Assembly: GCF_026210795.1 (NCBI RefSeq)
Contig: NC_089434.1
Span: 2,232,001 to 2,296,000 of the forward strand
Length of the DNA: 64,000 nucleotides
Source of the DNA: Rhizophagus irregularis
Taxonomy: Eukaryota
Direction of reading: 5' to 3'
This document shows positions 2,501 to 61,712 of the stretch, one piece after another (positions within the stretch are counted from its first letter, which is position 1; each line of letters begins with the position of its first letter). The notes beneath the pieces are model-generated. The model searched no databases. It saw only the letters and a program-made list of their open reading frames with translations, and was not told the DNA's origin. A program made the position numbers and the translations under genes.

Positions 2501-3357
2501 AATAAAAAAAATTTTACTGTGGACGCTACCACCAATAGCATAAAGATACAGAGATTAGGTAGTTGGACTGCACTATGATAAATTAGTGTGTACAGTTAGG
2601 CCATACATTTCAACAAAGGATCATGGTGTCCTTCTAACGTTCCCTATGAGGTCATTGGGATGTTCAGAGTCCTGTTCATGAGGTCACTGCTTGTATACCT
2701 TGGGGGTAATTTCCTGTCCAGGTGGTCCAACTGAAATGATACAGGCAAAGTTAAATCAGCTAATTTAGATGGTTCTTATAGATGGTAAAATTCTAAGTGC
2801 AATAACTTTGTGGTAGTTTACCTTCTAATAGGTTTAGGTCAACTAGGATATTCCTGAACAGACAGGTGTACTAGGTGAGGTATGGGGTTCAACTCTCCAC
2901 TAGGCGGGTACCGGGTGGCAACTTGGGTGGTAGGGCATCACTAGGATTAATCTCAAACAAATGAGTCTGTACTATCTCATGTTCTCTCTGTCTCAATAGT
3001 TACTACTATACCATTGGGAGATTTATAACTGTACCTTGGGGCTAAGGAATTGTGGGGCTATAGTGGCCTTAAGTGAGCCTTAGTTTAGTTCTGAAGTGTG
3101 AATGTTAGTACAGAAGGGTTTCTAGATGATTACCATTACATCTGACACCAAAAGTCCTCCATTACTAAGACATGCCAAGGTGGCATATAAATTTGAGTTT
3201 GTCTTGCCTCTAGAATGGATAAAGGATGAGTAGGGAGTTATAGCTAGCCAGTTAGTATTTCGTTGATGGATAGGGACTATCCTGAGGTCAAACTAAAATG
3301 GCAGTTGTAGTAATATTTGGTCAGGTTGCACATACCAGTTGGTTGGTATACGTTAGT

Positions 3358-3391
3358 ACTAGTTAATGCTCTTATAAGAGCATTAACTAGT
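3358..3391. other. Perfect 34-bp terminal palindrome (left)
   Basis: actagttaatgctctta|taagagcattaactagt. Confidence 0.95.
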
Positions 3392-4733
3392 TGCGCTATA
3401 ATGTTATCTAGTTATGAGTATAATGTTTTCTAGTTATGAGTATAATGTTACCTAGTTACTGTTTTTAGTGTTCTGTGGTCTTATTATTGCTTTATTGCTA
3501 TCCACTTGATTTTATTGCTCTGTCCTCTTTTTATTTCCTTCTAACTATCCGCTTGTTTTCATTGCTCTGTGGCCTTTTTATTGCCAAGGTGCTAGGCCAG
3601 TATTGATTGCAAAAAATCATGTTGCAGTCGGGTGGCGTAGTAAATTTGCGGATCAGATTTTGGCTGGCATTATAGCATAATTTCTGGTCGATCTTTTGGG
3701 CATGTGATTTTAGGTTCCAGCTTGGTGACATGATAGTGCTATGGTAGTATCATGGAATCATCATGGAACTGGCAGGGAACTGGCAGGGAATCAGAGTGTT
3801 TCTATTAGTTTGCCAGTTTAAGATCACTTCTTGGATGCCGAGTTATTGTCCAAAGTTTTGGCCAAAATTATTGTTAATTTACTGCACAAAAAAAAACATG
3901 TGCGAGGTGCGTTCTCAGAACCTTCCCACCACTTCTCCGTCATATTCCCACTACTTTCAAGGTTCTGTCTGAAGGATCAGATGGTTGAAGAATCAGAAGT
4001 ACCAAGATCAGCCTATGTAGTAATTACCAGGAATTAGTGCTGAATTTACTTGAAATCCCACTTTTATGTTTCCATTTGATTGCCAGGTTGAGGCACGAAA
4101 TGCCGAACTTGCAATCCATATATTTTCCCTCTCAAATTGCCATTTCTTGAATGCCGGGGATGAGGCATATGCGAAGTGTTAGTGTTGTGCTCATTCTTGC
4201 AATTCTGCCTTGTATGACCTTTTTGATTGCCGAGTGAGGCACATGCGAAGTGTCGAATTAGTTCAGACTATATTGCTTTCATACCTTTTTTCGTATATTC
4301 TCCTGAGACTTTCTGCCTTCCCGACCCCCTTTCCTGCCTATCGGCGGTAGTACCCCAAGTTGTAATTTCTTATTTCTCTTTCCTATATATTATTCTAACT
4401 TGGGGTACTACCAATTTTATATTTTATTTTTCGCTTCTGCCTTTCTAGAACCCTTTCTCGTATAGTTACTACTCTGGGATACTTTAGGATACTACCACAT
4501 CGACCACTTTGGAGTACTACCACATCGATCATTTTGGGGTACTACCACATCATTTACTTTCTCTTGGCTTGGCGCTGGGTATTACCACTAACCCAGTATT
4601 TTACTAGCAAAGCATATTCGCTCAAAATTATATAAAATTTTTATTTTAAACTTTCCAAGTTTCTCTGTTATTTTATACTGCTTTCTTGCATATACACCAT
4701 GCTTCTTGCACAAAAAAAGCCCAGCCCTAGCCC
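3358..4733 (+). repeat. Left terminal inverted repeat
   Basis: Reverse complement of 42786-44151; differences are mostly transitions; internal short repeats (tagttatgagtataatgtt; tactaccacatcga). Confidence 0.95.
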
Positions 4734-5408: not shown

Positions 5409-6286
5409 ATGCAAGACGAAATTGACATTAAAGCTCTGGCATATGCCCAGAGGCATGAAGAAAGATGCTTAGCTTAAGTTAGTCCTAATACATACTTTAC
5501 TAAAAATGACCAATTTTTTGAAATATTTTTATAGACCTAGATACAATGGCTTTCAAAACAATTGTGCAATTATTTTGTAAAATTTTTAAAATATATCAAG
5601 ATATATTTAAGGTATTTTTGAGATTAAAATATTAAAATAATATTAAAGTTAATTATATTATAATAATAAAATAATAACAAAAACATTAAAAAATTATTGT
5701 GATATTATTTTGAGTTATTTTTATAGACCTAGATACAATACAATTACAAAATAATAGCAAAAATATAATAAAAACATTTTGATGTATTAAATGTATTTTT
5801 ATAGTATTTTAAAATTATTACAAAATCATTTCAAAAAATTGGCCATTTTTAGTAAAGCATTTATGGGTGTGTAAGAAAAATCATCAATGGGAGGCGCCAT
5901 ATAAAAATATGAAGCAAAGTTATAGGTGGTGTAATATTTGCCCTAATGTACCGAAAAGAACATGCCATTATATTTTCGAAGATTTATTAAATAAAAAATT
6001 TCCACTCTGAAAACCTAAATTCTTGGAGGGATTACATTTAGATGGATATAATGAAGAATTAGGCTTGGCCTTTGAATATAGTGGTAGCCAATATTACCAA
6101 ATTGTCCCTTTTTTTCACCCGTAAAGGCAGATGAATCTAGACGCACAAATCTGGCGTGATGAAAAGAGGGCGCTATGCTATAGGGAAGGAGTAATTCTTA
6201 TAACTATACCCTACTGCGTAGTAGACTTAGAAACTTTTATAAGGAGCACCTTATACGCATTTGGTTATCTCCTAATACCCACCTAA
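5409..6286 (+). pseudogene. Zn-ribbon + PD-(D/E)XK restriction-like endonuclease of giant-virus type
   Basis: Manual translation WVCKKNHQWEA..WCNIC..GLHLDGYNEELGLAFEYSGSQYY..LITIPY; three in-frame stops; MITE at 5495-5857. Confidence 0.7.
5495..5857. mobile_element. MITE inserted in the nuclease gene
   Basis: TIRs ctttactaaaaatgaccaattttttgaaat / atttcaaaaaattggccatttttagtaaag; TA left, CA right; removal restores the frame. Confidence 0.8.
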
Positions 6287-7444
6287 AAGGCAACATATGC
6301 TCTTCTTTAATATGCATTAATTGTTCTCTTACAAAGGGACGCTGAGGTCCTAAATCATCTAAATAATATAAAACAAGCATTGGAGGGTTTCTCCCAACAA
6401 CAATTCTCTGGATCTTATGCATACTGGGAGACCATATCGGATTTGTTATTCTGCGTTGTTCAAAAGGATCATTTTTCCATTCTTCAGGAGCGAGCAAAAA
6501 TCGGATAGTAGTACCCTTTGGTAGTTGTGGTTCATCAACACCTATTGGACGATTATATTTTACTGATAGTTTGGAATATATCTGCTCAAGTTTTGTGATG
6601 TCATTAGGACTCATCTCAATCAATCGAGTTGGACTATCATTCATATTATCAACAATTTTTCTTGCAAACCGCTCACATTCTCTACAGTGCTTGCCAGTAG
6701 GTAGGAGAAACTCTATTAAATACTGATTTTTAAAAACTCTATATTCAAATAATCCAGCATAATGATCGATCATTGCGAAACTTATATGCCTGAAACATGC
6801 TATAATTCTTTGGATCTCAACGCCATGTTCATCCATTAATAAAGTCACGTATCCCATAAACTCAGTACCCTTATCACATTGTATTTTTCGAGGCCAGTTA
6901 AAAGGTTTATCAGGATTATCATATATACTCTTAAATGCTTCCGCAACTTCCTCACTGCTCTTTAATGTTAAAAAACGAAATCTTTATATCTAGTCGCGTA
7001 GTCTATAACCAATAGTACATAGTAATATATTGGGCCATCATCTAGTAAATTTGTATCCACATCTTCATCATATGGTATTTCGATTAAATCACATTGGTGC
7101 ACAGTATTTGGCTTCGTAATTTTAGAGTAACTGGCATAAGGTATATGCTTTGGTGAAGGACGAAAAATTTGATACATTGTTTGATTCTCAAGCCATTTTT
7201 TTACATCAATAAATGGAAAGCTGTAGCCAGCTTTTTTACAAGTATCCCACAATCCCTTAACATTTTGATACAGACCTTCAGGACGATAATATAGTTTTTG
7301 CAAAGCAAAATGCCGGTCTAAATTATGAGCTTTTTGGGGATCGATATTAATTGTAGGTGTTTGTTTTGCTATGATTTGGTCTAACTCTCGCGCTTTTTGA
7401 GGATTGATATAAATAACCGGTCTTTCAGCTTGACGCTCTTCCAT
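6237..7444 (-). pseudogene. Retroviral-like (rve) DDE integrase, Maverick/Polinton type
   Basis: LQKLYY..VKKWLENQ..PNTVHQCDL..IDYATRY, then after a frameshift near 6968 KSSEEVAEAFKSIY..IQCDKGTEF..NDSPTRLIEMSP. Confidence 0.85.
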
Positions 7445-7493: not shown

Positions 7494-8324
7494 CTATTTA
7501 TTAGCTAAGGAGCTTTTTTCCTTACGCTTTTGCCTAGCTTCTATCTCCTTCTGCAGATTTAGTGGAGTGTCAAACCTTAGGCGGATTGCAAGGGGATCAT
7601 CTTCCGGCCTAGTGAGATCAAATACAATAAATTCACCTCTTCGAAGGTAGCTATTAATAACTATGGATGCATTTTTTACATCATCAGTATAACGACCAAC
7701 TATCTTGGACACATCTTGTTGGCTACCACCACCGTTATACATTACTAGGTGGGAGATATTCTCACGAATGAATGTAGGGACTTTATGGTATTTTTGGGTT
7801 ACATATATACTTGAAACATTTTAATGACGTCCATTCCCAAAAAATTGGCTAATTCGATTTTGTATATGTTTGGAAATTTGCATCAGATCCTCAAAAATAA
7901 TTAGTGTGCTTCTTTCAGGTGAGAATGCTCTTGTACTAGGAATTCTTTCAGGTGAAATGTACCTGAAACTAATATCCTCATAGAAAGGCGCTTTTGGATC
8001 CTTTGCAATCATATTATATATATACCTCACATATCCCCATTTTGGCTCATCAGGATAATACCCACAAACAATTAGATCATTACATTTAATGTAGCGAGAC
8101 CCACCTTCCTCCCCTTCTTGCACATATTCATCCTTATCACCTAGAACAAGGTTTCTAAGTAAATTAGTCTTACCTGAACCACTTTTTCCAGTGACCAACT
8201 TGCTGAAAGGCTATGTCATCGCCGGATGGCCAATATTTTGGGATGATTCATGCTTTGTGACTTCATCCATATCTAAAAGACGAAGTTTTATAGGAGGTAG
8301 TCCTATCTTTTGGTTCTTCTGCAT
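7494..8324 (-). pseudogene. A32/FtsK-like DNA packaging ATPase (Polinton/NCLDV type)
   Basis: Walker A GKSGSGKT, Walker B IIFEDL, GRH*NVSSIYVTQKYHKVPTFIREN; two in-frame stops. Confidence 0.85.
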
Positions 8325-15700: not shown

Positions 15701-15770
15701 TCTAAGAGTTCATTTGGAAAGATTTTTTTTTGATAATTTTTAATCGAAGGGGTCATTTGGATTGAGAAAT
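9800..15770. repeat. ~80-bp satellite array with ~240-bp three-variant higher-order repeat
   Basis: Recurrent gagaattttctaaga..tttagggaaattatttttt units cycling through three variants; ends degenerate. Confidence 0.9.
11656..11955. mobile_element. 300-bp MITE inserted in the satellite
   Basis: TIRs aggaccccagatatct / agatatccggggtcct; aaatag duplicated at 11650-11655 and 11956-11961. Confidence 0.85.
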
Positions 15771-30195: not shown

Positions 30196-33100
30196 CACAG
30201 GTCGAAGGGGCACCATTGTCCAAAATTCAAAAAATGCAAATTCCACATTTTTCTGGAAAATGGTGGGAAATTGTGGAAAATGCTGCATTACACTGAGCAA
30301 TTTTTTGGAATAACATTGTTACAATATTGTCCGATTTAGCAAATTTTATGAAAATTTGGGAAAATGCTACATTATATCTCAAATGTAACATTTTGTAACA
30401 TTTCGTAACATTGTTATAACATTGTCATTGAAATCAAATTTTGCTTTTTTTTTGTCAAATGTTCCAATTTTCTTGCAAATGGTGCATTTTTATGAAAATT
30501 CCACATTTTACCTCAAATGTAATAACATTTCATAAAATTGTTATAACATTTCAAATTTTGCTTTTTTTTGTCAAATGTTCCAATTTTCTTGCAAATGGTG
30601 CATTTTTATGAAAATGCCATATTTTATCTTCAATGTGATGTCATTGTAACAACATTTCATAAAATTGTTATAACATTGTCAATTAAAATCAAATTTTGTC
30701 AAATATTCCAATTTTCTGGCAAATGGTGCATTTTTTATGAAAATTCTATATTTTTTTGTCAAATGTTGCATATTTTCAGTAAATTTTACATTTTTTTGGT
30801 CAAATATTTCATTTTCGTCAGAATGTTAAAATATTACAATTTTTTTTTTGGAAAATGCTCAATAATATAGCATTACACTGAAAAATGTAGTATTTCACCA
30901 AATTACACTAAAAAGTATCACAATTATCACATTTTTTGGAAAATTCCACATTACATTAAATTATACTGAAAAATGTGGCACTATACTAAATTATGTGGAA
31001 TTGCACTAAAAAATACTACAATTACACTAGACAATGTAGCATTACACTAAAAAAGTACCACAATTATCATATTTTTTAGAAAATTTCACGTTATACTGGA
31101 AAATGTAACATTATGCTAGAAAATGCGGAATTGCACTAAAAAATGCGGAATTGCGCTAAAAAACACAAAAAAAATACTACAATTACACTGGATAACGTAG
31201 CATTACACTTAATTACATTAAAAATTGTTATGATAATTTTTATTTATTTGTAAAATTACGGACATTATTAAATTTATAATATTTATATTCTAACGCATTA
31301 TTTAACATTAAACACATTGTTAATATTAACAATGTATCAACACGATGCATGTGTTGTGTTGTTGTTTAATTTAATACTAAACCTTACTACTGAAGACTTC
31401 CTCTTTTTGTCACTATAAACAGGCGGAGGGAGCAGCAATGGCTCTCCCCCTATAGGTACTTTATGGCCTCTACCTATTTATAGAGGAGGGGCTTTTCGTA
31501 AAGTTATTAGATAGATATATATATATGTATATATATAAATATATATATACATCTATCATAATTAAATTAAAATTATAAAAAAAAAAAAATAATAATTTTG
31601 GGGAAAAAGTCCCTATTTATATAAAATTATGTATCACGCATATCACGTGATATTACTTAATAATTACCGCAGCTTTAGCTGCGGTATAGCGAAAAAAAAT
31701 TAAGCTTTTTTTAGTAAAAAGCTTAATTTTTTCTCACGATCTTTCAATTTCAACTTCTTTTTCTCCCCTTTCCCATTTCGTTTCCCTCCTTTCCCTCTTT
31801 CGTTCTCCTTTTTCCCATTTCATTTTCCCCTTTTCCATTTCGTTTCCCCTCTTTCCTTCTTTCGTTCTCCCCTTTCCCTTTTCTCCCTTCTCTTTTCGTT
31901 CTCTCTCCGCACTTTTCCCTTCCCTCTTTTTCTCCCTTCCCCTTCCTTTTTCCCTTTTTCCCTTCCCGGAATCGTCTTTCAGTAAAAACGAAATGGTAAG
32001 TTTTGAAGCGAAATGCTTCGAAACTTTTTTAAAATTTTTTTTTTGATTTTTTGTTGTAAGGAAACGTTTCTAACATTTCCTTTCTTTTTTAGGACTTTCG
32101 ACCTCGGAATTTGTAAACGGTTAGTTTCGAAGTTTTTCAAAACTTTTTTTTGTTTTTTAGGAAACTTTTCTAACGTTTCCTGTATTTTCTTTTTTTTGTA
32201 GGTCTTTCGGCTTGTTTCGTTCAATTCGGAATATTGAAATCGGTAAGTTTTGAGGTATTCGCCTCAAAACTTTTTTAAAAAAATTTTTTCTTTTTTTAGG
32301 AAACATTACTAATGTTTCCAATAATTTCTTTTTTTATAGGTCTTTTTGGCGTACTTGACTTAGGAAAATGAAATGGTAAGTTTTGAGGCGTTCGCCTTGA
32401 AACTTTTTTTTCTAAAATTCTTTTTAGGAAACATACTGACGTTCCCTTTCTTTTTTTTTGTAGAATTTCGGCGTTTTGACTTTGGGAAACGGGGAATGAA
32501 ATGATGGTAAGTTTCAAAGCGTTTTGCTTCGAAACTTTTAAAATAAATTTTTTTTTTTGCTTGTTATAAGGAACGTTTTTAACGATCCTTTATTTTTTTT
32601 GTGTAGGTCTTTCAGTATACTTCTTTGGGACTCGAAATGGTAAGTTTCGAAGCGTATGCTTTGAAACTTTTAAACAATTTTTTTTAATATTTTAGGAAAC
32701 ATTAACTAACATTTCTTTATTTTACTTTTTGTAGGTTCTGGATGTTAGAATGGTGGAAACGACCGGTAAGTTTCGCAATGTTGCATTGCGAAACTTATTT
32801 TTTTAATTTTTTTTTTAAAGAAACAATACTAACGTACGTTTCTTTTACTTTTTATAGGTTAAACACTGAAGCTATGAGGGAAATTTATAAGGAATTATGT
32901 AAGAAATGTTTTACGTGTTTCTTCTGACTTATCAGGGCAAGGGAAAACTGAATGGATTAAAGAGAATAGTTTCAGTAAAGGGAAATTTATACACAGCTTT
33001 TTAATAAGTGATGGTACCGGACGTTTGAATAATGGAAATCAAAACGAACCAGTAAGTTTCGCAACATTGTGTTGCGAAACTTAATTTTTTATTTTTTTTT

Positions 33101-35245
33101 ATTAAAAGAAATATTAACTAACGTTTCTTTTTTACTTTTTGTAGGTTCCAGACGTTAGAATGATGGAAACGAACTGGTAAGTTTCGCAATGTTACATTGC
33201 GAAACTTAATTTTATTAAATTTTTTTTTTTAAGAAACGTTAGCTAACGTTTCTTTTTTTTTTAGGAACGCCGGACAAAATTACGACCCGGACTTTAGGTG
33301 AAAGGTAAGTTTTTCATTTTTTTTTTGTATTTATTTATTAAATAACTTTTTTTTTACGAAACGTTAATTAACGTTTCAGTTTTTTTTATAGATCACGGCT
33401 TTGCTTCAAGGACAAGATTTCAAAGGTATTACCTTTGAAATCAATTTTATTTTTTTTTTGTTTAACGAAACGTTAGTAAACGTTTACTAGCGTTTCATTT
33501 ATCTTCTTTTTTTAGTTCATTTTCCGGTCACCTTCTAGAAGAATTTTGAAGGTAAATATAAGAACCTTCAAAATTCTTTCATTTTTTATTTTTTTTTTAT
33601 TACAATGAAACGTTTACTAACGTTTCGGTTTTCACTTTTTAGGTTCCAGGGCACCATTTCAACATTTCGAAGGTATTAGAACTTCAAAATTATTGGATTT
33701 TTGTTATGTAATGAAACGTTATTTAAAGTTTTGTTTATTTTTTGTTTTTTTTGTAGGTTAAAGGAATGGAAAAAATGAAAAGGAACGGGGGAAAACGAAA
33801 GGGGAAAAGGAAAACGAAAGGTAAAGGTAAAGACGAAAGGGGAAAGAGAAGATGAAAGAATTTGAAAAAGAAAATGAAAAGGGAAAGAGAAAGGGAAAAA
33901 CGAAATGGAGCGGGAACAAAATGAACATTTCGAAGGTATACTTCAAAATGTTTTTTTTATTTTGATTTTTTTCAATGAAACGTTTCTAACATTTTTTTTT
34001 CTTTTTTTTTTGTAGGTTTTCACTGGCTTCTATTTCGGCACTGGACATTTGATACATAAATAAATTAGAGGTGTGGATTATCCATGAATGGAACATCAGA
34101 TATCTAATGAATATAGACCAATATAGATTCTCATCGCTAAATAATAATTGTGTATTTTTTAATAAATAATATAATAAATTATAAATTATGTAAAATTATT
34201 AAATCAGTGTTTTAAATTGTCACAGCATTTACACTAAATTGTTTAAAATTATTACTAAATTTCACTCAATTGTCCAAAATTATTGCAAAATTATCTCCGT
34301 AAATGTTGCATTTATACCGTTTACACTCAATTGTCCAAAATCGGTAAAATATTTTCACTTAATTGTCTGAAATTATCCTAAATTCCACTAAATTATTCAA
34401 AAATTTAGCTAACATTTACCGAAAAAATGCAAAATTCACCACAATTTGCATTACATTTGCATAACATTGCCGAAAAAGTCACCTAAATTTTCAACAATTT
34501 ACATAACATTACTAAAAATATATTACAATTTACCACAATTTGCATTACGTTTGCATAAAATTACTAAAAATTTACTTAAATTCACCACAATTTGCATTAC
34601 GTTTACATAACATTACTAAAAATTTGACTAAATTCACCACAATTTGCACTTCGTTTACATAACATTACTAAAAATTTAACTAAATTTCACTACAATTTGC
34701 ATTACGTTTGCATAAAATTACTAAAAATTTAACTAAATTCACCACAATTTGCATTACGTTTACATAACATTACTAAAAATTTAACTAAATTCACCACAAT
34801 TTGCACTTCGTTTACATAACATTACTAAAAATTTAACTAAATTCACCACAATTTGCATTACGTTTGCATAAAATTACTAAAAATTTAACTAAATTCACCA
34901 CAATTTTCATTACGTTTGCATAAAATTACTAAAAATTTACCTAAAATTCACCTCAATTTACATTACGTTTGCATAAAATTACTAAAAATTCAACTAAATT
35001 CATCACAATTTGCAAAGATTTGCCTAAAATTTCCCACAATTTAATGATAATTTACTGAAAAATTTCTCAACATTTGAATTAGGAATTCTGTAGGAATTCT
35101 GCCATTTTGACAAAATTTGCCAAATTGTAAGTCCTCCATTATCCCAAAATTGTAACACAATTTACTCCAATTTACCGGGATAATTCTCAATTTGCCAGAA
35201 AAATTCCAGGCAAATTTTGCGACAATGACATCTGTTCGACCTGTG
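30196..35245. mobile_element. Non-autonomous CACTA/CMC-like DNA transposon, copy 1
   Basis: TIR cacaggtcgaa / ttcgacctgtg; 3-bp TSD TGG; subterminal repeats; related copy at 47474-52663. Confidence 0.9.
34430..35030. repeat. 52-bp subterminal tandem repeat
   Basis: aaattcaccacaatttgcattacgtttacataacattactaaaaatttgact units; also at ~51940-52450. Confidence 0.85.
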
Positions 35246-37852: not shown

Positions 37853-39079
37853 TTAATAACTATACATATTGATAATTTCAGATATTTCATCATTTTCTGT
37901 AGACTCCGATTTTAGGTCTGAGTTATGCTCATCTTCAGGTCCGGAGTCTTCTAATTCTGTATCGCCTATAGTATAATTATCACCTGCATCAAGACGGTCA
38001 GATTCTTGCCTCATTGCGATTCTCAAAAGCAATTTAAGATGTTGGGGGGTTGGATTTTTGCCACCATGAACTCTGGAAGCATGTTTAAATCCATAATCTC
38101 TTAAATTTTTAGGTATGGTTCTATAAGGTTCTTGCTTCAAGAATTCATTAAATGGCCAAGCACTACGTGTCCCACTTTCAGTAAAGACAGGGTCAGATAA
38201 CTTTTTAGCCTTAATTGTATCTTGAATCCAGGTAAGCAATTCTCTTGCGCGTTCTGGATTCTTTTCCATAGAAAGAAGTGGACAAGGGATTCTTCCATCT
38301 GCCTTCTTATATCCTGTACAATACCAAGAATATCCCTCTTTATACCATGCTGGAATATTCGAAAGATCAATCCCAAGTAGTTCATCTGGCTCATAGTGCT
38401 TAATTTGAAGAGATGTTACTTCTGAAGGTCTTATACTCAACATCACTATCACATCTGCAAGATCCTCTCTAGTAGGAATTTTACTAACATCCATATTTTG
38501 GATCCTCTTTTGCACATTTGCTAAGGAGAAATGTATGGGAATTCTATCTGGATTAGCCATTCGCTTCTTAGTTCGCTTTTTTTGAATTTTGTTAGAGTCT
38601 TGAATAAGTTCCTTATCTTTGGCAAATGCTTCAATAATTGCAGGATCTACACCGCCTTCTGCTAACTTCACACGGAATGTTGACTGACGTGAAACACCGG
38701 CAACGATTTCCTTTTCATTTTTATTTTTCGGACTCACTGCCCAATGATTAGCGATAATGTTAACAAAATCACCGGCCTTAGCACAATATTCTGCCCTTCC
38801 TTCTATAGTGAGGTTTTTCTTTCTCTTATCTGGTAGGAGAGCCTCTATTTTCTCTTTACTAAATGAATGTTTAGGTTTAGCAAGAGCTACCTTAACACAT
38901 CTACGGGCCATCCAATCTGGAAGTAAAGCATCTAGTTCGGGAGCATGTTCGCTCAATTGTTCTGGAATGGAGCTAGCCGACAAATTACATTTTTCCAGGA
39001 ACTGCTCTAAGATGCTGACATAGTTATTAGTTTTAGGTTTTCGAGTCTTTAGAGCGGTTGCTTTAGTAGCCATGTACAT
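37853..39079 (-). CDS. Tyrosine-recombinase-fold protein, protelomerase (telomere resolvase)-like
   Basis: Uninterrupted 408 aa; ordered motifs SIRPSEV (R), CTGYKK (K), PKNLRDYG (R), AMRQ (His position), DNY (Y). Confidence 0.65.
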   Translation of the reverse strand: MYMATKATALKTRKPKTNNYVSILEQFLEKCNLSASSIPEQLSEHAPELDALLPDWMARRCVKVALAKPKHSFSKEKIEALLPDKRKKNLTIEGRAEYCAKAGDFVNIIANHWAVSPKNKNEKEIVAGVSRQSTFRVKLAEGGVDPAIIEAFAKDKELIQDSNKIQKKRTKKRMANPDRIPIHFSLANVQKRIQNMDVSKIPTREDLADVIVMLSIRPSEVTSLQIKHYEPDELLGIDLSNIPAWYKEGYSWYCTGYKKADGRIPCPLLSMEKNPERARELLTWIQDTIKAKKLSDPVFTESGTRSAWPFNEFLKQEPYRTIPKNLRDYGFKHASRVHGGKNPTPQHLKLLLRIAMRQESDRLDAGDNYTIGDTELEDSGPEDEHNSDLKSESTENDEISEIINMYSY

Positions 39080-39215: not shown

Positions 39216-39515
39216 TTGAATATCTATAATAAAAGTGAAGACGAAGTTTTAAGAATATTAATATCAAAATTACCTTGTATGGGTCGTTTTATTTGCCAAT
39301 ACATCAAGAGAGATGGTTCGATTTGTGGGAAAGGGTGCATGAGTGAATTAGGGTGTGCCAGACATTTTAATGCCCTTTCTAAAACAATATGCCCTATCTG
39401 TGGGCAGGGAACCTATTTCAAGACCGGAATCTGTAGTACACATGGTGGAATTTATGACTATGCCTGGCGCGAAAGTAAAAAAACTGAAACAAAATCTAAT
39501 ATGGTCAAGACTTAA
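39216..39515 (+). CDS. Small Cys/His-rich zinc-finger-like protein (probable ATG at 39279)
   Basis: CQYIKRDGSICGKGC..CARH..CPICG..CSTH. Confidence 0.5.
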   Translation: MNIYNKSEDEVLRILISKLPCMGRFICQYIKRDGSICGKGCMSELGCARHFNALSKTICPICGQGTYFKTGICSTHGGIYDYAWRESKKTETKSNMVKT

Positions 39516-39559
39516 CTGAATAACTATCTGTGCTGAAATATTATTTGTCCTGCCCTATA

Positions 39560-42500
39560 GAATCAAAGAGTTCCTGAATATCGTTATCTGGTTTTGGCCT
39601 ATATGGTGGAAGTTCTGGTGCATCTTTATCTCCAAAACCAGTACTGTTATATGGCTGGCGATTAATTCGATATGAATATTACCTAACTTGTTGTCCTTTA
39701 GGCCCTATTCTTTTTTTATCACTTTTTTGCATTGATTGCCTTTATAGCTGAATTAAGATCTGGTGTTGTCTTAGCATGAGACTTAAAGCCAAAGAGTGAT
39801 AAAAACTGATTTCGAATTTCTATAAATCTTTCACAGGATTGCACGAATGCTTCTGATACAATATTACCAGGAAGGATACGTTTATCATCAATGCTGGTAA
39901 AGCCTAATATTTGAAAGAGTTCTCTTATAGCCTTCCAATGATTTGCTGAATAAGATTTACGCAAGTCTTCTGCCACTGATTTTTCCAGATTCTCTTCAGC
40001 TTTATGGCAGGCCATTTCCCATTGTACATTTTCCTCAGTTTTCAATCCCTTCATTGCATTCTTCTCATCATGACCTTGCCTTCGGAAATAAGACAATTGT
40101 AAGAAATGCTTCTGAGCTTCAGGCGAACTAAAATTTTTAACGAATTTTCTATTGCAAATATTATCCCAATCCTCAATACTCATGTCTTTGCAATAAATAT
40201 TTCGCATATAAAAACGTTAAGTACTATAGTATCTGCGATAGAGTGCTCTTGGTCGAATTTAAGGTCTTTAAGGCTAAGATTTTGAGAAGTAGCAACTGCA
40301 TTAAAATCCGTTTCTTTAATAACTAATGCTAACCTCATTATGGATTCTTTTACGGTTCCCTATAACTCCTCGACTTTTATACATTTTTATTAGTTAGAGA
40401 GAAGCGCCAGTACTAGCTATAAGACTACAAAGCTTCTCAATAAAGTATCTCGCAGAAAGGCGTTTCTGATGCTTAACTTCAATAAATATTATTACAGCTG
40501 GAGATTCATCAATTTTATAAGAAATGGTATTGTTATCCTATTTACGATGACCTTTTATTGCTGTAGGTAAGTTATTAGGCCGAGCACTTTCAAGTTCTGC
40601 CCTAATATTTTCACGACCTGATGGGCAAAAAAGTTCGTTAGAATTTTTCTGATAGAATATAGAAACAATACGGCGAGAACAATCACGAATTCAATAAAGC
40701 ATTTGTGCAAAAGCTTCGACATGAACTGGAGTGGCGATGTTTGTAATAGCTATAACTATATCGAAGTGACCTGTAACCTCGAATGATATTCCTGCCTCCA
40801 TTATATTTGTATAAGCTATACAGTCAAGCTCACTCCAAGCGACATTAATATCAGAAAAGTCTTTTTGACGTTGTTTTCCATCCATATCTCCATAATAAGC
40901 ACAGGCTCTAACAGGCGAATTATCAGGTTTAGACAACTTAGATGCTTTTTCCACTAACGCTCTAGCTATCACCACTCCGGTAAATACAAATGCCACACGC
41001 TTACCCTGCCTCAAAAGGTCATATCCTATTCGCATAACTTCTGCTCCACTATTTGAATCATAAATAAATTCAACCGTCTCACCTATACGAGGCTGATACT
41101 TATTATCGACTACGCGAATATTTTCACCACAATAAATCTGGAGGAAGGTTAGTGTTGAGATATTTGCGAAGGCATCTATGGCCAAAACATGCATTGCAGA
41201 TCTTAAGACATCACGCATTGCGTTTTCAGATTCCCGTGCATTTGTACCGCTAAACATTTGGCGCATAATGGCATTAGATTCATCGAGAATAGCTACAAAC
41301 GGACGGGCTGTGAATTCGACACGAAAGAGGCTTTCAACCTGTACTATGATAATATCCCACTCATTTATAGATAAGTCTCCTTGCATATTTTGGTAGTTGC
41401 AAATTTGGAAGCCAGATGCTTTTAACTCATTAAGTTTGGATTTTGATTCATTGCTAAGAGACTTTCGGTAAAAGATCCAGATATAACATGGTAAAAAAGA
41501 AATATCATGTACTTTATCTTTCAATGCCATAATAATCTCTCTTAATGTAGTGGTTTTCCATGTCCTCAGAGGAGAACGAATAAGTGTTGTCATTTTCTCA
41601 ATACCCAAGAAATCAGAATATACTTCCAAAGCATCCTTTAATTTTTCTACATTAATTGCCATTTCTGATAATTCTATAAGAGGGCGTGGATTTGATATAG
41701 CATCACCTATTCTTTCGACTATTCCTCTCTTAGGTTTTGTAGAAATTTCAGTCACTTTTCCAAATGCTAATCCCTTATGATCTGGCTTATATTGATTTTG
41801 CTGATAGCATTTAAGTACAAAATGGCCGTTACTTCGAAGAAAGCTATATAATTGATCTCTTTCATGTTTGATTCCGCAAATAGGACATGCTTCATATAAC
41901 TTTGCTTGGAAGTTGACAAATCCCTTTTTAATATGGCCAATTTCAAGCCACTCATATTTTGCTGTAACTAAACCAGCTCTCTTGCTTAAAGCGGTTTCAT
42001 CTTCGATAGGTTGGAATTCATCCTTTTCTAGCTTTTCAGAAGAAAAGGTCTGTTGCCAGATTTCAGAATAATCAGATTTAGGTTGAACTAAATAATCTTC
42101 TAGCTTGTGATATCCTTGTTTAACTGAAGAAACCACGGGTCTTTTAACTCTATCTTCCTTTGCCGATCCAAGAAGCTGAAGACTAAAACGTGATTTATAA
42201 AGTCCAAGGTCAATAAATTCAGAATATGGTTTTCCAATCTTATCAGCAACTTTTTTCACAAATCCTCTAAAGTCTCTGTAGTCAACGAACCGTGCATATT
42301 TATACATGATATGCCAGCTACATTTATCAGAATTAGACGAACTGGCTAAGGCAAAAGCATCTAATATTGCAAAATGTTTTAAGTCAAAATATAAGATATC
42401 GGTGCAGGCAATTAAGATTCTGGATAATAAATCTTCACGAGAACTTTTACTTCCATCTAAGGAAGGGAGTTCAGGATTCATAGGATTGGGGTTCTGCCTC

Positions 42501-42817
42501 GCATCAATATCCAGAACCAGACAGAGAGGCAGATTCCCATCAATGCACTCGTGAGTATCAGGAATCCCATAAATTTCAGATGGATGATCAACTATCGTAA
42601 AACCCTTTTCTGACACTCGAACTATATATTTTGAATAAATCTCTTCAGGATGATAGGCTTCTAGAAGAGAAATATCATTTTTATTATTGGACAAATATTG
42701 AAAATACACATGATCATTGTAACCAGGCTCAAAATCAAGGTCGGCTAAACCAGAGAAGAGCCTGGTTGCATCATTTATTGTTTTAGGGCTAGAGCTGCGG
42801 TTTTTTTGCGCAAGCAT
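39560..42817 (-). pseudogene. AEP/PrimPol primase fused to a Zn finger and UL9-like (origin-binding) SF2 helicase
   Basis: VLDID, KCSWH, IDLGLY (AEP motifs); CPIC..H..C; IRSPLRTWKT, VQVESL, ILDE, AQMLY*IRD; stop at 40691, collinear fragments to ~39560; ATG lies inside the right TIR. Confidence 0.85.
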
Positions 42818-44151
42818 GGTATATGTGCAAGAAAGCAGTATAAAATAACAGAGAAACTTGGAAAGTTTAAAATAAAAATTTTATATAATTTTGAGCGAAT
42901 ATGCTTGCTAGTAAAATACTGGGTTAGTGGTAGTACCCAGCGCCAAGCCAAGAGAAAGTAAACGATGTGGTAGTACCCCAAAGTGATCGATGTGGTAGTA
43001 CTTCAAAGTGGTCGATGTGGTAGTATCCTAAAGTATCCCAGAGTAGTAACTATACGGGAAAGGGTTCTAGAAAGGCAGAAGCGAAAAATAAAATATAAAA
43101 TTGGTAGTACCCCAAGTTAGAATAATATATAGGAAAGAGAAATAAGAAATTACAACTTGGGGTACTACCGCCGATAGGCAAAAAGGGGTCAGGAAGGTGG
43201 AAAGTCTCAGGAGAATATACAAAAAAAGGTATAAAAGCAATATAGCCTGAAATAATTCAACACTTCGCATGTGCCTCACTCAGCAATCAAAAAGGTCATA
43301 CAAGGCGGAATTGCAAGAATGGGCATAACACTAACACTTCGCATATGCCTCATCCCCGGCATTCAAGAAATGGCAATTTGAGAGGGAAAATATATGGATT
43401 GCAAGTTCGGCACTTCGTGCCTCAACCTGGCAATCGAATGGGAACATAAAAGTATGATTGCAAGTAAGTTCGGCACTAATTCCTGGTAATTACATAGGCT
43501 GATCTTGGTACTTCCGATTCTTTAACCATCTGATCCTTCAGACAGAACCTCGAAAGTAGTGGGAATGTGACGGAGAAGTGGTGGGAAGGTTCTGGGAACG
43601 CACCTCGCACATGTTTTTTTTGCGCAGTAAATTAACAATAATTTTGGCCAAAACTTTGGACAATAACTCGGCATCCAAGAAGTGATCTTAAACTGGCAAA
43701 CTAATAGAAACACTCTGATTTCCTACCAGTTCCCTGCCAGTTCCATGATGATTCCATGACACTACTACAGCACTATCATGTCACCAAGCTGGAACCTAAA
43801 ATCACATGCTCAAAAGATCAACCAGAAATTATGCCATAATGCCAGCCAAAAACTGATCCGCAAATTTACTGCGCCACCTGACTGCAACATGATTTTTTGC
43901 AATCAATACTGGCCTAGCATCTTGGCAATAAAAAGGCCATAGAGCAATGAAAACAAGCGGATAGTTAGAAGGAAATAAAAAGAGGACAGAGCAATAAAAT
44001 TAAGTGGATAGCAATAAAGCAATAATAAGACCACAGAACACTAAAAACAGTAACTAGGTAACATTATACTCATAACTAGAAAACATTATACTCATAACTA
44101 GATAACATTATAGCGCAACTAGTTAACGCTCTTATAAGAGCGTTAACTAGT
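42786..44151 (-). repeat. Right terminal inverted repeat
   Basis: Reverse complement of 3358-4733. Confidence 0.95.
44118..44151. other. Perfect 34-bp terminal palindrome (right)
   Basis: actagttaacgctctta|taagagcgttaactagt. Confidence 0.95.
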
Positions 44152-44467
44152 TTAGTTAACTAATTGTACCTATGAATTACCAAGCTATAAATAGGTTCTT
44201 AAATGTGAACCTTTACCCTAAGTCAAATACAAAGACAAATCAGCCCATATGATTTATAATTTTTATTAATTATTATTTTATTTATAATCTATATATTTTT
44301 AATTATAAATTATAAAAATTGACAGTTTAATTTATATTAAATCGTGATCCATGAATGATCGACATCAGATCATATGATTTGTATATAGTAAATTTGGGGT
44401 TAAGATATATAATAACTAGCTATAATAAATTTAAATCTCTCATTGACAACCTTTAACAACCATCAAA

Positions 44468-47400: not shown

Positions 47401-50400
47401 TAAAACAAAATTAAGTACCATTACGGAAATATCCAATCTGCAAGAATGGACATAGCCCATGAATGAAGAAAAACACAGGTCGAAGGGGCACCATTGTCCA
47501 AAATTCAAAAAATGCAAATTTCACATTTTTCTGGAAAATGGTGGGAAATTGTGGAAAATGCTGCATTACGCTGAGCAATTTTTTGGAATAGCATTATTAC
47601 AACATTGTCCGATTTAGCAAATTTTATGAAAATTTGGGAAAATGCTACATTATATCTCAAATGTAACATTTTGTAACATTTCGTAACATTGTTATAACAT
47701 TGTCATTAAAATCAAATTTGCTTTTTTTTTGTCAAATGTTCCAATTTTCTTACAAATGGTGCATTTTTATGAAAATTCCACATTTTATCTCAAATGTAAT
47801 AACATTTCATAAAATTGTTATAACATTGTCAATTAAAATTAAATTTTGCTTTTTTTTTGTCAAATGTTCCAATTTTCTTGCAAATGGTGCATTTTTATGA
47901 AAATGCCACATTTTATCTTCAATGTGATATCATTGTAACAACATTTCATAAAATTGTTGTAACATTATCAATTAAAATCAAATTTTGTCAAATATTCCGA
48001 TTTTCTGGCAAATGGTGTATTTTTTTATGAAAATTCTATATTTTCTGTCAAATGTTGCATATTTTCAGCAAATTTTACGTTTTTTTGGCCAAATGTTTCA
48101 TTTTTGTCAGAATGTTAAAATGTTACATTTTTTTTGAAAATGCTCAATAATATTGCATTACACTGGAAAATGTAGCATTTCACCAAATTACACTAAAAAG
48201 CATCACAATTATCACATTTTTTGGAAAATTCCACATTACATTAAATTATACTAAAAAATGTAGCACTATACTAGATTATATAGCATTACACTAAAAAATA
48301 CCGCAATTACACTAGACAATGTAGCATTACACTAAAAAGTACCACAATTATCATATTTTTTAGAAAATTTCGCGTTATACTGGAAAATGTAACATTATGC
48401 TAGAAAATGCGGAATTGCACTAAAAAACGCGGAATTGCACTAAAAAACACAAAAAAATACTACAATTATACTGGATAACGTAGCATTACACTTAATTACA
48501 TTAGATAATTTTTATTTATTTGTAAAATTACGGACATTATTAAATTTATAATATTTATATTCTAACGCATTATTTAACATTAAATTCACATTGTTAATAT
48601 TAACAATGTATCAACACGATGTGTTGTTTAATTTATACGAAACCTTACTACTGAAGACTTCCTCTTTTTTGTCACTATAAACAGGCGGAGGGAGCAGCAA
48701 TGGCTCTCCCCTATAGGTACTTTATGGCCTCTACCTGTTTACAGAAGAGGGGCTTTTCGTAAAGTTATTAGATAGATAGATATATATGTATATATATAAG
48801 TATATATATACATCTATCAAAAAAATTATAATAAAAAAAAAAAATTTTTTCAGGAAAATGCCCCTATTTATACAAAAATATATATCACGTGTATCACATG
48901 ATATTACTAATAATTACCGCAGCAGGCGCAGCTTCAGCTGTACCTGCTGCGGTATAGCGAAAAAAAATTAAGCTTTTTTAGCAAAAGCTTAATTTTTTTT
49001 TCTCACGTCCCCTTTCTTTCGACATTTCTTTCTCACCTTTCCTTTCCCCTTTCCCTTTCGTTCTCCCCTCCCTTTTCGTTTCATTTTCCCCTTTCCCCTT
49101 TTGTTCTTCCTCCCTTTTCGTCCTTTTCCCTTTCATTTTTCACTTTCCCTTTCCACTTTCTCTTTTCGTTCTTTTTTTTCCCTTCCCTTCCCCTTTTATC
49201 GTAAATTAGAAATATCAGAAATTTCCTTTCAGAAAAACAAAAGGGTAAGTTTCGAATCATTTCGAAACTTTAATATTTTTTTTTTATTTTTTAGGAAACG
49301 TTTCTAACGTTTCCTATATCTTCTTTTTTTTATAAGTCTTTTCGCCGTATTCAACTTGGAAAAACGAAATGGTAAGTTTCGAGGCGTTCGTCTCGAAACT
49401 TTTTTAAAAAAATAGTTTAATTTTCTATTTTTAGGAAACATTACTAACGTTTCCAATAATTCTTTTTTTTTTATAGGTTTTTTTGGCGTACTCGACTTAG
49501 GAAAATGAAAGGGTAAGTTTCGAGGCGTTTGCCTCGAAACTTTTTTTTCTAAATTGTTTTTAGGAAACATACTGATGTTTCCTTTCTTTTTTTTAATAGA
49601 ATTTTCAGTGTTTTGGCTTTAGAAAACGAGAAACTGAAGGGTAAGTTTCGAAGCGTTTCGCTTCGAAACTTTTTAATTTTTTTTTTAATTTTTTGTAAGG
49701 AAACGTTTCTAAGTTTCCTTTTTCTTTTTGTAGGAATGCCAGACATTTGGATGATGGAATCGAAATGAACCGGTAAGTTTCGCAACGTTGCATTGCGAAA
49801 CTTAATTTTATTAAATTTTTTTTTAAGAAACGTTAGCTAACGTTTCTTCTTTTTTTTGTAGATACACTCTGGGTTCCTTCCGATATTGGATTTCGGTTAG
49901 GTTTCGAAGTTTCGTTTCGAAACTTCGATTCTTTTTTTTATTTTTAAAAGGAACATTACTAAATACTAACGTCCTTTATTCTTTTTTGTAGGTTCCGGTG
50001 CTCCAGGATTCTGAAATGGAAAATGTAAGTTTCGTTTAACGAAACTTAATATATTTTTGTTTTTTTTAATTAAGAAACGTTCTAACGTTTCTTTTAACTT
50101 TTTTTTTGTAGGTTCCAGTACTCCAAGATTCTGAAACAAAAAATGTAAGTTTCGTTTAACGAAACTTAATATATTTTTGTTTTTTTTTTAATTAAGAAAC
50201 GTTCTAACGTTTCTTTTAACTTTTTTTTTTGTAGGTTCTGGTACTCCAAGATTCCGAAACAGAAAATGTAAGTTTCGTTTTAACGAAACTTATTATATTT
50301 TATTTTTTTTTAATTAAGAAACGTTCTCTAACGTTTCTTATACTTTTTTTGTAGGTTCCGGTGCTCCAGGATTCCGAAATGGAAAATGTAAGTTTCGTTT

Positions 50401-53400
50401 TAATGAAACTTATTATATTTTATTTTTTTTTTAATTAAGAAACGTTCTTTAACGTTTCTTTTACTTTTTTTTGTAGGTTCCGGTGCTCCAGGAGCGTAAA
50501 TTCATTAGACTATACCTGGAATAAACCAACACTAGATTATTAGGTCTTTTTAAAAATGTTAAAAGACCTGTGAGAACGCCAAGTTTCAGCATGAATATTC
50601 ATTAATGACTCTCCTCGATTCCGAAACGGAATAATGTAAGTTTCATTTTAGCGAAACTTATTATATTTTTATTTTTTTTTAAATAAAGAAACGCTCTAAC
50701 TTTTTTTTTACTTTTTTTTTGTAGGTTCAAGTGCTCCAGGATTCCGAAACGGAAAAATGTAAGTTTCGTTTAACGAAACTTATCTTTTTTGTTTTTTTAA
50801 TTAAGAAACGTCCTAACGTTTCTTTTACTTTTCTTTTCTTGTAGGTCTCCAAGTCAGGTGTCATTGGAAAGTGAAAATGGTAAGTTTCGCAATGAAACTT
50901 ACCGTGTTTTATTTTATTTTTTATTATTAGAAACATTTTTTAACATTTCTCTTTTGTTTTTTTTGTAGATTCGAGCGGGATACTTGACTTTGGTAAGTTT
51001 TGCAACATAAACGTTGCGAAACTTAATTTTTTTTTAATTTTTTTTTAAGAAACGTTCTAACGTTTCTCTCTTTTTTTGTAAATCGATTTTGGGAGTCTGA
51101 TTGATCTGGAGTTCCCTCCCTCCAGTTTCAGTCTTGGGTTTGGATAATGTTTAGGTTTTAAAGTATAACTTCGAAACTTCAGTTTGAATGGTGAGTTTCG
51201 TGACAAATATCACGAAACAAGTTTTTTTTGATTTTTTTTATTAGGAACCGTTTACTAATGTTCTTTTTCTTTTTTGTAAGTTCGGGATATCTGGGAAGCT
51301 AACTTAGGAAACATGAATCGCGTAAAACCATTGTTGAATAGAAGCCATTACTTTCCGTTCAGGTATTGGATATAGCTTGGTAAGTTTCGTACATTTCGTT
51401 ACGAAACTCCTGTTTTTTCTTTAAGAAACGTTCTAACTGAACGGTTTTCTTTTTTTGTAGATTATTGTAATGAAATAACAAAAGTAAACAGTTCTTTGGC
51501 TCCTTGCTTAGTGAGTTTCGAAGATTAACCTTTGAAACTTTTTGTTTTTTTTATGTTTGTTTTTCTTTAACATTATTGTACTTAATTACATATTATAATT
51601 GAAGAATTAGATAAATTGTTAATAAAATTAAAATCATAATAAATTGTTATAAAATTTGCATAAAATTACGCCAAATTGTTGCTTAATTATCACTCAATCG
51701 TTAGAAATTGTCTTAAAAATATTGCATTTGCACTCAATTGTCCAAAAATTTTCAAACCATTGTCACTCAATTGTTTAAAATTGTTAAAATTTTTCTAGCA
51801 TTTGAAAGTTGAATTTTGGTAAAATGGTTCATTTTTCCAAAATTTGACAAAAAAAATGCACAATTTACCAGAATTTTCCTGGTAAATTGTGCAACAATGG
51901 AAAATTTTTATTTCAAATTTGCAATTTACGTATCATTACAAAAAATTCATCACAATTTACATAACATTGGCCTAATATTGCTAAAAATTCACCACAATTT
52001 GAACTTCGTTTACATAACATTAACTAAATTCACCACAATTTGCATTACGTTTGCATAAAATTACTAAAAATTTGACTAAATTCACCACAATTTGCATTTC
52101 GTTTACATAACATTACTAAAAATTTAACTAAATTCACCACAATTTGCATTACGTTTGCATAAAATTACTAAAAATTTAACTAAATTCACACAATTTTCAT
52201 TATGTTTGCATAAAATTACTAAAAATTTGACTAAATTCACCACAATTTTCATTACATTTACATAAAATTACTAAAAATTTATTAAATTCGCATGAATTTT
52301 CATTACATTTACATAAAATTACTAAAAATTTGACTAAATTCACTACAATTTGCATTACGTTTACATAAAATTACTAAAAATTTGCCTAAAATTTACACAA
52401 TTTACATTACATTTACATAACATTACTAAAAATTTACCTAAAATTTCCCACAATTTAATGATAATTTACTGAAAAATTTCTCAACATTTGAATTAGGAAT
52501 TCTGTAAGAATTCCGCCATTTACATTGCAAAATTTGCCAAATTGTGTATCCCTCCATTATCCCAAAATTGTAACACAATTTACCCCAATTTACCGGGATA
52601 ATTCTCAATTTGCCAGAAAAATTCCAGGCAAATTTTGCGACAATGACATCTGTTCGACCTGTGAAAGTTAGTTATATTTATGCATAATGTAACTGAGGGA
52701 ATAGGAGAGTGGAAGGAATGGTCACTGAAAATATAGAAAAGATTGTTAAAAAGCGAAAAATTGAAAAACTAAATCCTACTTTTACACCACATACACAATT
52801 TACCAAACAATGGACCATGCCAATTTTGAATAAAGAAAGTGAGTTTACCTGTTTGCCATATTTATTTCTAAATATAGATAACATATTTGCTTGTTAGACG
52901 AACAGGATCCAATACAGGGTGAATCGGTAGGTGATATTAATTCTAGAATTTTTATTATATGAATTTCTTGATTATAAATCAATCCAATTATTTACAAAAC
53001 CAAATACTCGTTGATCTGACTAATCTGGAAAATAATGTAAATAATGGATCTCCAGAAACTAAGAGGTAAAATATTATATAATTGCATTTTAATTGTTGAT
53101 TATATTATATTATTTATTTTTTTATTTTTTTTTTGAAGTTAACAAGTATTTATCAGTGGATGGGCTCTAAAAGAAAATGAAAAGACTCGTCAACGTGGAC
53201 CAATAAAAAGAATATCTCAATAAGTAAAGCATCTTTTAGAATCAATGTTCCATACTGGAACAGCAAATCCTCATCAAAAATTAAATGTACAACAGATGCA
53301 TGAAGAACTGCTGAGACGTACAGAACTTGGCGAAATTGAAGAAAGTGACATACCTAAAGTATCTACAATAACAAACTGGATTTCAACTTTTTCACGTAAA

Positions 53401-60791: not shown

Positions 60792-61712
60792 CATATGGGC
60801 TGATTTGTTTACTCTGCATTAAAAAGAGTTATTGATTGATTTTCACAATTTTTGTTATTCAAAATTGTTTTGTAATACCAAAAAATCATCTGATTGATGA
60901 TCACTTGACTACATAATAAGTTGAACAAAAATTTACATTTGCGAAACTTAAATTATTAAATGTAAAAGAGCTGTGAAAAAACCCATTTCACTAATAAAAA
61001 ACCCATTTCTCATATGTATGGAATTTTTAACATATATTATTAAAAAGTAAGTATATTTTAATAAAATATAAAGTAAAATAAAAATGTATATAGCCTTAGT
61101 AGCTATAAATGTTTATAAAAGTATAATAAAAATATCATATAAAAGATGGTATCATAATAGATATTTTAATAATTATTTTATGTCAGAGTTTGTATTACCA
61201 TCTTTAAACGCAAATATATCAAGATTCACTGATCTGTTTTCTATAATTTTAGGCTTGTTGGAAAGCCCTTGTTTTGGACTTTATAGGCGAAAAAAGAGCT
61301 CGCCGATTGAATCATTAGATCCAGAGATATTTACATTTAAAGTTAAGGTATGAACTTTTTAACATGCTTAAATGCAAATATCTTGGGATCCACTAATCCA
61401 TTTTTTATAAATTTAGGCTCTTTGGAAAGCCTTTGATCTGGTCTATATGAACGAAAAAAGAGCTTGCCAATTGGATCACTGGATCTGGAGATATTTACGT
61501 TTTAAGTTAAGATACAAATTTTTAACATATATAGTAAGTGCTAAGAATTATATTAATTTAAAAGAAATATTTACCAAATTATAGTATAATAACATTAAAT
61601 AAAAATTTTTTAATACTCATTTCCAATTTACTGTATATTATATAGTATTTTGTATAATAAAAATGTAATAAAATTAATATTTTAATTAAAGGTAGACAAA
61701 TCAGCCCATATG
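60792..61712. mobile_element. Non-autonomous TIR element, inverted copy of the 571-2406 family
   Basis: Same catatgggctgatttgt TIRs; reverse complement of 571-732 plus 1632-2406. Confidence 0.85.

Follow-up and report, generated by a model that had tools for sequence, protein, structure and literature searches.

Known systems and the locus under study

Polintons, also called Mavericks, are defined by protein-primed replication, and the route by which they are excised is poorly known. Earlier reports describe Mavericks and related A32 genes in Rhizophagus and Glomus, and an expansion of Mavericks in Glomerales. The locus examined here lies in 64,000 nucleotides of the arbuscular mycorrhizal (AM) fungus Rhizophagus irregularis (NCBI RefSeq assembly GCF_026210795.1, contig NC_089434.1, positions 2,232,001 to 2,296,000 of the forward strand), and this whole stretch is called the window below. 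It holds an element of about 41 kb bounded by terminal inverted repeats (TIRs), and within it a gene that fuses a PrimPol-type archaeo-eukaryotic primase (AEP), a zinc finger and a UL9-like superfamily 2 (SF2) helicase. The fusion is probably the replication initiator and primase-polymerase of this Maverick/Polinton-like element, whose replication is predicted to be linear and hairpin-ended. That is to say, the best reading is a Maverick/Polinton-like family with internal priming and hairpin telomeres in place of protein priming.

Several described systems bear on this locus. The AEP-UL9 fusion architecture is already known from giant viruses (the African swine fever virus (ASFV) F1055L type and the marseilleviruses) and from polinton-like viruses. 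The main text of a recent preprint describes AEP-SF2 fusions as a sizable minority among polisuviruses, and in polinton-like viruses it pairs AEPs with tyrosine recombinases and DDE integrases with PolB; the string 'telomer' is absent from that main text (bioRxiv 10.64898/2026.10.13.758929). In the accessible text on phaeovirus endogenous viral elements (EVEs), a single internal telRL site is described, together with excision as circles by a separate recombinase (PMC13236599). Tyrosine recombinases are described as usually having His at the first position of the KxxR motif discussed below (PMC3558466, in part), and the oriS of herpes simplex virus (HSV) as consisting of inverted boxes around an A+T spacer (PMC13483431, in part). 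As of PMC10640383, in its accessible text, no dsDNA virus of fungi was known. In our literature searches, no paper joined protelomerase with polinton or with arbuscular mycorrhizal, and among the papers listed by further searches protelomerase turned up only with the phaeovirus study and its preprint, and telomere resolvase in none. The combination of a PrimPol-UL9 fusion with hairpin ends was thus not found described for Polinton-like elements, although the original Polinton/Maverick papers, Repbase and supplements may describe AM elements.

The fusion gene

The gene and its parts are located as follows.
39541..42817, minus strand: fusion of PrimPol-type AEP, zinc finger, UL9-like SF2 helicase and C-terminal domain, a pseudogene, delimited from open reading frames (ORFs), profiles and a homolog model
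42083..42556, minus strand: AEP catalytic core, residues about 88-245, with DxD, SxH and D motifs intact
41807..41887, minus strand: CxxC-H-C zinc finger (C311, C314, H318, C337), from conservation in distant homologs

A minus-strand ORF of 708 amino acids (42817-40691) carries the AEP motifs D103-x-D105, S167-W-H169 and D203, then the zinc finger C311-x2-C314-x3-H318...C337 between AEP and helicase, and finally the SF2 motifs, namely the Walker A sequence SPLRTWKT (415-422), QVES (493-496) and DE (512-513). This ORF matches the Pfam family Herpes_ori_bp (PF02399) above the cut-off, with E 6.6e-15. A reading made from sequence only had proposed AEP motifs followed by SF2 helicase motifs at 39560..42817; the order of domains is confirmed by motifs, Pfam, a PDB profile search and a structure model, and the location holds, but the gene is not one ORF and its end lies at 39541, 19 nt beyond 39560. 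After the premature TGA at 40691-40693, comparison with homologs reveals three further stops and three frameshifts before the terminal stop at 39541-39543, so that the gene holds four premature stops and three frameshifts in all. Compared with copies in three contig sets, the window copy differs overwhelmingly by transitions, and at the first premature stop a different base stands in other copies.

The profile search against herpes origin-binding helicases and AEPs that had been suggested as a check was positive: a profile of 52 sequences of the fusion family, compared with the PDB, recovered HSV-1 UL9 (E 4.8e-12) and the poxvirus D5 AEP domain (E 0.0046). In structural comparison, the fusion is represented by an AlphaFold2 (AF2) model of the near full-length homolog P0016, with a predicted local distance difference test score (pLDDT) of 81.8. 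With VIA-align, residues 56-298 of this model were superposed on human PrimPol 7jk1 (Z 16.8, root-mean-square deviation (rmsd) 2.9, 208 residues), and residues 399-1112 on HSV-1 UL9 9hgi (Z 23.4, rmsd 13.0, 537 residues); Foldseek also matched the model to UL9 (E 2.6e-16, 805 columns). The UL9 C-terminal region is included insofar as the alignment reaches residue 1112, at rmsd 13 and within a whole-chain model. With the domains recovered by PDB profile, Foldseek and VIA-align, the PrimPol-zinc finger-UL9-like helicase fusion is, on sequence and modelled structure, real.

The AEP, finger, Walker A/B and QVES residues show little or no variation among 20 homologs of about 20% identity: DxD, SxH and D are invariant or at least 90% kept, three of the four zinc ligands are invariant and the fourth is kept in at least 90%, and the GK of Walker A is invariant. 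The window copy departs from the canonical Walker A GKT in having WKT. The sequence-only reading had called this Walker A degenerate, and the motif SPLRTWKT is indeed present; decay of this copy as its cause was ruled out, since among 68 homologs parsed from the 120 listed the residue before Lys is W in 42 and G in 21, and the Trp is a trait of the subfamily. At position 214, Gln stands in place of a conserved Arg (Q in 20, R in 17 and W in 3 homologs). The ratio of nonsynonymous to synonymous substitution (dN/dS) of the fusion is 0.20-0.30 against all 13 loci compared; therefore, the fusion family evolved under purifying selection.

All named matches among the 120 listed fusion homologs belong to Glomeromycotina, in which at least 120 copies exist. 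In a quick helicase tree without outgroup (62 rows, 10 AM proteins sampled), the AM fusion proteins form one clade with a Shimodaira-Hasegawa-like approximate likelihood ratio test (SH-aLRT) support of 99, inside a group with three unclassified proteins (SH-aLRT 97) and apart from the ASFV-sized loci. The comparison with viral homologs that had been suggested thus gives one AM group beside three unclassified proteins, and no donor is claimed. The homologs P0277 and P0285 stem from contigs of 15 and 39 kb that had been assigned to bacterial bins. Full-length structural matches include Marseillevirus D2XAI8 and Bodo saltans virus A0A2H4UVH4, there are matches to fragments of ASFV F1055L too, and AEP and helicase lie in one chain in most of 45 viral loci from IMG/VR; the earlier remark that UL9-like helicases and AEPs occur in giant viruses therefore extends to the fusion itself, which is present in ASFV and marseilleviruses. 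No relatives were recovered from IMG/VR with the AM fusion alignment, the resolvase alignment, the A32 fragment or P0277 as query, nor from GTDB with P0285.

Element ends and terminal palindromes

The boundaries of the element are given by the following features.
3353..3357, plus strand: TTAGT, left copy of a likely 5-bp target-site duplication
3358..4733, no strand assigned: left TIR
3358..3391, no strand assigned: left terminal 34-bp perfect palindrome
42786..44151, no strand assigned: right TIR, about 1.37 kb, overlapping the fusion start; of 1,365 aligned bases 54 differ, 48 by a transition
44118..44151, no strand assigned: right terminal 34-bp perfect palindrome (36 bp with flanks), core TTATAA, a predicted resolvase site
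44152..44156, plus strand: TTAGT, right copy of the likely 5-bp target-site duplication

The TIR pair is 96% identical and bounds 40.8 kb, with TTAGT outside each end, and the first 32 nt of the fusion, start codon included, lie inside the right TIR. This linkage is found elsewhere too: in metagenome contigs, 28 of 36 loci match the TIR upstream of the fusion, some of them only over the last 60-80 bp. The sequence-only reading would have been undermined by a fusion gene lying apart from TIRs elsewhere; the metagenome loci speak for linkage, with the qualification that in L017 and L022, of a second subfamily, a resolvase-like gene (L017:887-2032, L022:2-679) is divergently placed upstream of the fusion in place of a TIR. 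The outer TIR end is reached by four metagenome loci and the terminal palindrome is present in two of these, L007 and L040, at the same distance from the fusion and with unrelated outer flanks. The changes in the L007 palindrome are fully compensated, and across four ends 4 of 15 palindrome pairs are changed on both sides. Just inside each palindrome there are three 22-bp direct repeats (3397-3458, 44051-44112), partly kept in L007 and L040, which are possible binding sites of a resolvase or integrase. From the palindromes and the resolvase-like neighbour described below, hairpin ends are predicted.

The genes that relate the element to Mavericks lie near the left end.
6237..7444, minus strand: rve (retrovirus-type) integrase, frameshifted near 6970-7030
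7494..8240, minus strand: A32-like packaging ATPase with in-frame stops (Pox_A32, E 1.7e-13, with X at stops)

The integrase has an rve score of 0.94 in the ESM atlas, and homologs at 77-89% identity carry PF00665. Its fragment in the window is identical to a protein labelled Rhizophagus irregularis, and P0441 is one R. irregularis gene model that joins the rve integrase and the A32 ATPase. The third catalytic position of rve integrases is usually Glu; it is Asp in the integrase homologs P0384, P0386, P0389, P0390, P0394 and P0395. The Pfam scans of the window detected no replication gene in the element other than the fusion. No DNA polymerase, the protein-primed DNA polymerase B (pPolB) included, was matched by Pfam in the ORFs of the window and stop-to-stop fragments of at least 42 amino acids, a scan that left out satellite stretches and most long opposite-strand frames. 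Neither a double jelly-roll capsid nor a cysteine protease was detected in the window by Pfam or PHROGs, and for the capsid this negative is weak evidence, because divergent capsids in a decayed copy would escape both.

Predicted origin in the TIRs

Each TIR also contains a site that resembles a herpesvirus origin.
43103..43169, no strand assigned: oriS-like site of the right TIR, a 16-bp perfect inverted repeat around a 35-bp spacer of 80% AT; predicted origin
4346..4412, no strand assigned: mirror oriS-like site of the left TIR

The site lies about 300 bp upstream of the fusion start codon; of the 24 loci whose upstream DNA is long enough, 17 have it. Between copies, the arms are only 55% identical, as against 84% for the spacer. 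Watson-Crick pairing is nevertheless kept at 205 of 255 arm positions, compared with a mean of 140 and a maximum of 176 in 10,000 permutations of the arms, two-sided changes occur in 13 of 15 arm pairs, and covariation is 0.669 against at most 0.162 in slid controls; as the copies are related, these controls do not give probabilities, the slid ones being far lower all the same. The covariation of the arms would suit a cruciform as well as two binding sites that co-evolve.

The resolvase-like neighbour

Next to the fusion lies an intact gene.
37853..39079, minus strand: intact ORF of 408 amino acids, likely telomere resolvase (protelomerase), from its catalytic residue set

The residues concerned are R217, K259, K324-x-x-R327, Q358 (H in most homologs) and Y369. 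Among homologs, the Arg is kept in 68 of 70, the Lys in 59 of 60, the K and R of KxxR in 49 and 60 of 61, and the Tyr in 57 of 57, while the position of Q358 is H in 36 and Q in 18 of 54. The set follows the R-K-(K/Y)xxR-H-Y pattern of telomere resolvases (TelN, TelK, TelA, ResT), with Gln for His in this copy, and stands in the same order as R275, K300, KxxR383, H416 and Y425 of TelN, and the spacing of 11 residues from H to Y in the 408-aa family is that of TelA. In the ESM atlas, ResT/TelK clusters are the nearest named ones after the own cluster of the ORF (0.95), above Phage_integrase (0.93). The fusion and the resolvase-like gene bear neighbouring locus tags in G. cerebriforme (twice), D. 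epigaea and R. clarus, and they are adjacent in L017 and L022. In Gigaspora, the resolvase-like homologs P0128, P0145 and P0155 carry the name 'highly derived d5-like helicase-primase', which hints at members of the family in which a D5-type replicase, and not the fusion, goes with the resolvase.

Proposed replication cycle

In the cycle that we propose, the resolvase-like protein would cut each palindrome at its TTATAA core, seal the hairpins and free the element from the chromosome. The UL9-like part of the fusion would bind and open the oriS-like site of the TIR, and the AEP would prime there. PrimPol-type enzymes are poorly processive; therefore, host polymerases would probably take over extension and do most of the synthesis. 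Copying through a hairpin would regenerate a palindromic junction, to be resolved again by the resolvase. The rve integrase would then insert the element in a form that has been opened 17 bp beyond the axis of the hairpin, which would leave a complete palindrome at either end and duplicate 5 bp. Such a scheme would need neither terminal protein nor pPolB. The sequence-only reading had named the fusion the likely replicase and had regarded internal priming as suited to hairpin ends, for which neither terminal protein nor pPolB is required. A role in replication is supported, but an initiator and primase-polymerase working with host polymerases is the more likely form of it, and this copy is dead; internal priming agrees with the lack of any pPolB fragment by Pfam, and the hairpin ends are a prediction from the palindromes and the resolvase-like neighbour.

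Weighing of the explanations

A number of observations count against the proposal. The copy in the window is a pseudogene, because its reading frame is broken by the stops and frameshifts, and the Trp of Walker A together with Gln214 may mean impaired enzymes in the subfamily. For the target-site duplication there is a single insertion, in AT-rich DNA, and it is mostly this one window that ties integrase and ATPase to the element ends. The palindrome is extended by one further base at three of the four ends, and the metagenome loci are related copies, largely of similar accession series, and not independent. No strand-changing joint was shown among the contigs from DNA runs, and no hairpin molecule was seen. 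As for the resolvase, the atlas match to ResT/TelK has 158 features in common, fewer than the 170 that are typical within a family, and hhalign against 11 protelomerases, with R and K in register, reached E 0.086, which the best few of 100 column shuffles equalled or bettered; against TelN alone it was not significant. The AF2 model of the 408-aa protein is poor over the catalytic region (pLDDT 67), fold searches with it returned generic helical matches, and TelA reached only Foldseek E 1.7 and Z 4.7 against this low-confidence model. Pfam on 72 homologs, the PDB profile, PHROGs and tblastn against phages gave no match for the protein, and neither resolvase profile found a match in the DNA around the fusion (up to 10 kb) in the 45 viral loci. 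Almost no reads fall on the resolvase ORF in a polyA run that bears the same species label (strain unverified). The assignment as resolvase is likely, though not statistically established.

The explanation that best survives beside a hairpin-ended element accepts the fusion as a replication gene and takes its neighbour for an ordinary tyrosine recombinase, the palindromes for recombination or dimer-resolution sites, and the free form for a circle. It draws on the profile and fold tests just given, which did not establish a protelomerase, and on the association of AEP replicases with tyrosine recombinases in polisuviruses (main text of bioRxiv 10.64898/2026.10.13.758929). Yet the ORF has KxxR in place of HxxR, its atlas similarity to ResT/TelK is above that to Phage_integrase, the sites are perfect palindromes without an asymmetric spacer, and the element already has a DDE-type integrase, so we regard this explanation as unlikely.

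Somewhat less probable still is a composite, in which a giant-virus-derived TIR transposon (fusion and resolvase) received a Maverick fragment (rve and A32) and host repeats. The nested repeats inside the element (an 81-bp satellite, and 120-bp repeats that also occur outside the TIRs), the predominance of giant-virus proteins among the fusion relatives and the lack of a capsid gene by Pfam/PHROGs would suit it. A 5-bp duplication is expected of an rve integrase and not of a tyrosine-type enzyme, and to this extent the duplication at the TIRs opposes a composite. Moreover, the 25 longest inverted repeats include no second TIR pair around the rve-A32 block, and in R. clarus the integrase and fusion homologs lie on equal-sized contigs (144,524; 1,230,704; 2,265,359).

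That the gene is a decayed giant-virus insertion fragment or a host-domesticated gene with an incidental TIR link is very improbable: asfarvirus-like giant insertions are described for R. irregularis (accessible text of PMC10640383) and ASFV F1055L has the fusion architecture, but the many Glomeromycotina copies, whose 10 sampled members form one clade, the start codon inside the TIR and above all the TIR linkage in most other loci largely refute it.

Returning to the hairpin-ended Maverick/Polinton-like element, a broader claim seems to us evenly balanced, namely that AM fungi harbour a widespread, undescribed family of integrating dsDNA virus-like elements which joins Polinton integration and packaging (rve/A32), a giant-virus PrimPol-UL9 initiator that acts on the oriS-like sites of the TIRs, and a eukaryotic protelomerase that, from its sites at the two ends, excises the element directly as a linear replicon with hairpin ends. 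If true, there would be another solution to end replication, which links Polintons to the hairpin-ended genomes of some giant viruses, and resolvases may also be hidden among the 'tyrosine recombinases' that accompany AEP replicases in other polinton-like viruses. A compact protelomerase adapted to eukaryotes could also serve as a tool enzyme. The question is made testable by one intact 408-aa enzyme, a 34-bp substrate and a 67-bp origin candidate.

Other features of the window

Between the resolvase-like gene and the fusion there is one small gene.
39216..39515, plus strand: small Cys/His-rich ORF, no Pfam match

Further genes lie within the TIRs. A broken long gene at 20198-17343 (minus strand) encodes a coiled coil, a stretch that looks Gag-like by eye and a zf-CCHC (Pfam E 1.6e-4); a frame that by eye resembles an aspartic protease comes after it, and no reverse transcriptase was detected. 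This gene could be cargo, a nested long terminal repeat (LTR) relic or a capsid substitute. An ORF at 36033-35581 (minus strand) has a Crinkler N-terminal domain (Pfam E 1.3e-11), and may be host effector-like cargo or a nested insertion. The broken frame 5789-6262 (plus strand) looks by eye like giant-virus restriction-like endonucleases, with no Pfam match.

As for repeats, the 81-bp satellite, with higher-order repeats, occupies about 6 kb within the element (9800-16000). Arrays of 120-bp and 52-bp AT-rich repeats are found both inside (31900-35100) and outside it (49200-52500), and are therefore probably a nested host repeat. An outer inverted pair, 570-2406 and 60792-61713, was considered as the element ends and rejected, as it is a small separate repeat with its own short TIR, in opposite orientations; a further end copy of it lies near 44230-44255, about 80 bp outside the right TIR.

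Comparison with known systems

The giant-virus fusions share with the AM fusion the order AEP, zinc finger, UL9-like helicase and C-terminal domain and a length of about 1,050-1,200 amino acids, at about 20-25% identity. In giant viruses the genome measures 170-380 kb and encodes a PolB besides the fusion, whereas in AM fungi the fusion is the sole replication gene detected, in a 41-kb integrated element. The quick tree places the AM clade with two unclassified metagenome proteins rather than with the ASFV-sized loci. HSV-1 UL9 has the helicase fold in common, with the C-terminal region inside the rmsd-13 alignment, but no primase is fused to it. Its origin, oriS, is like the TIR site in having inverted boxes that flank an AT-rich spacer; unlike oriS, the arms of the TIR site differ in sequence between copies and yet stay complementary.

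With N15, Borrelia ResT and the phaeovirus systems, the AM element has in common a resolvase-type catalytic set and a palindromic site with a 6-bp core, and with N15 also the position of resolvase and replication genes near the tel site. Unlike the phaeovirus EVEs, it has a full site at each integrated end, and therefore the resolvase itself could excise the element.

The element resembles Mavericks/Polintons in its size, its long TIRs and a likely target duplication, and in carrying an rve integrase and an A32 ATPase. It differs from them in that no pPolB, capsid or cysteine protease was detected, and in its palindromic termini and resolvase-like gene; the duplication is of 5 bp (one insertion) as against 6 bp in vertebrate Mavericks, and the ends are ACT...AGT as against AGT...ACT. 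The polinton-like viruses with AEP replicases are similar in having an AEP-helicase fusion in place of pPolB. What sets the AM element apart from them is that it combines the AEP with a DDE-type integrase and a protelomerase-like enzyme.

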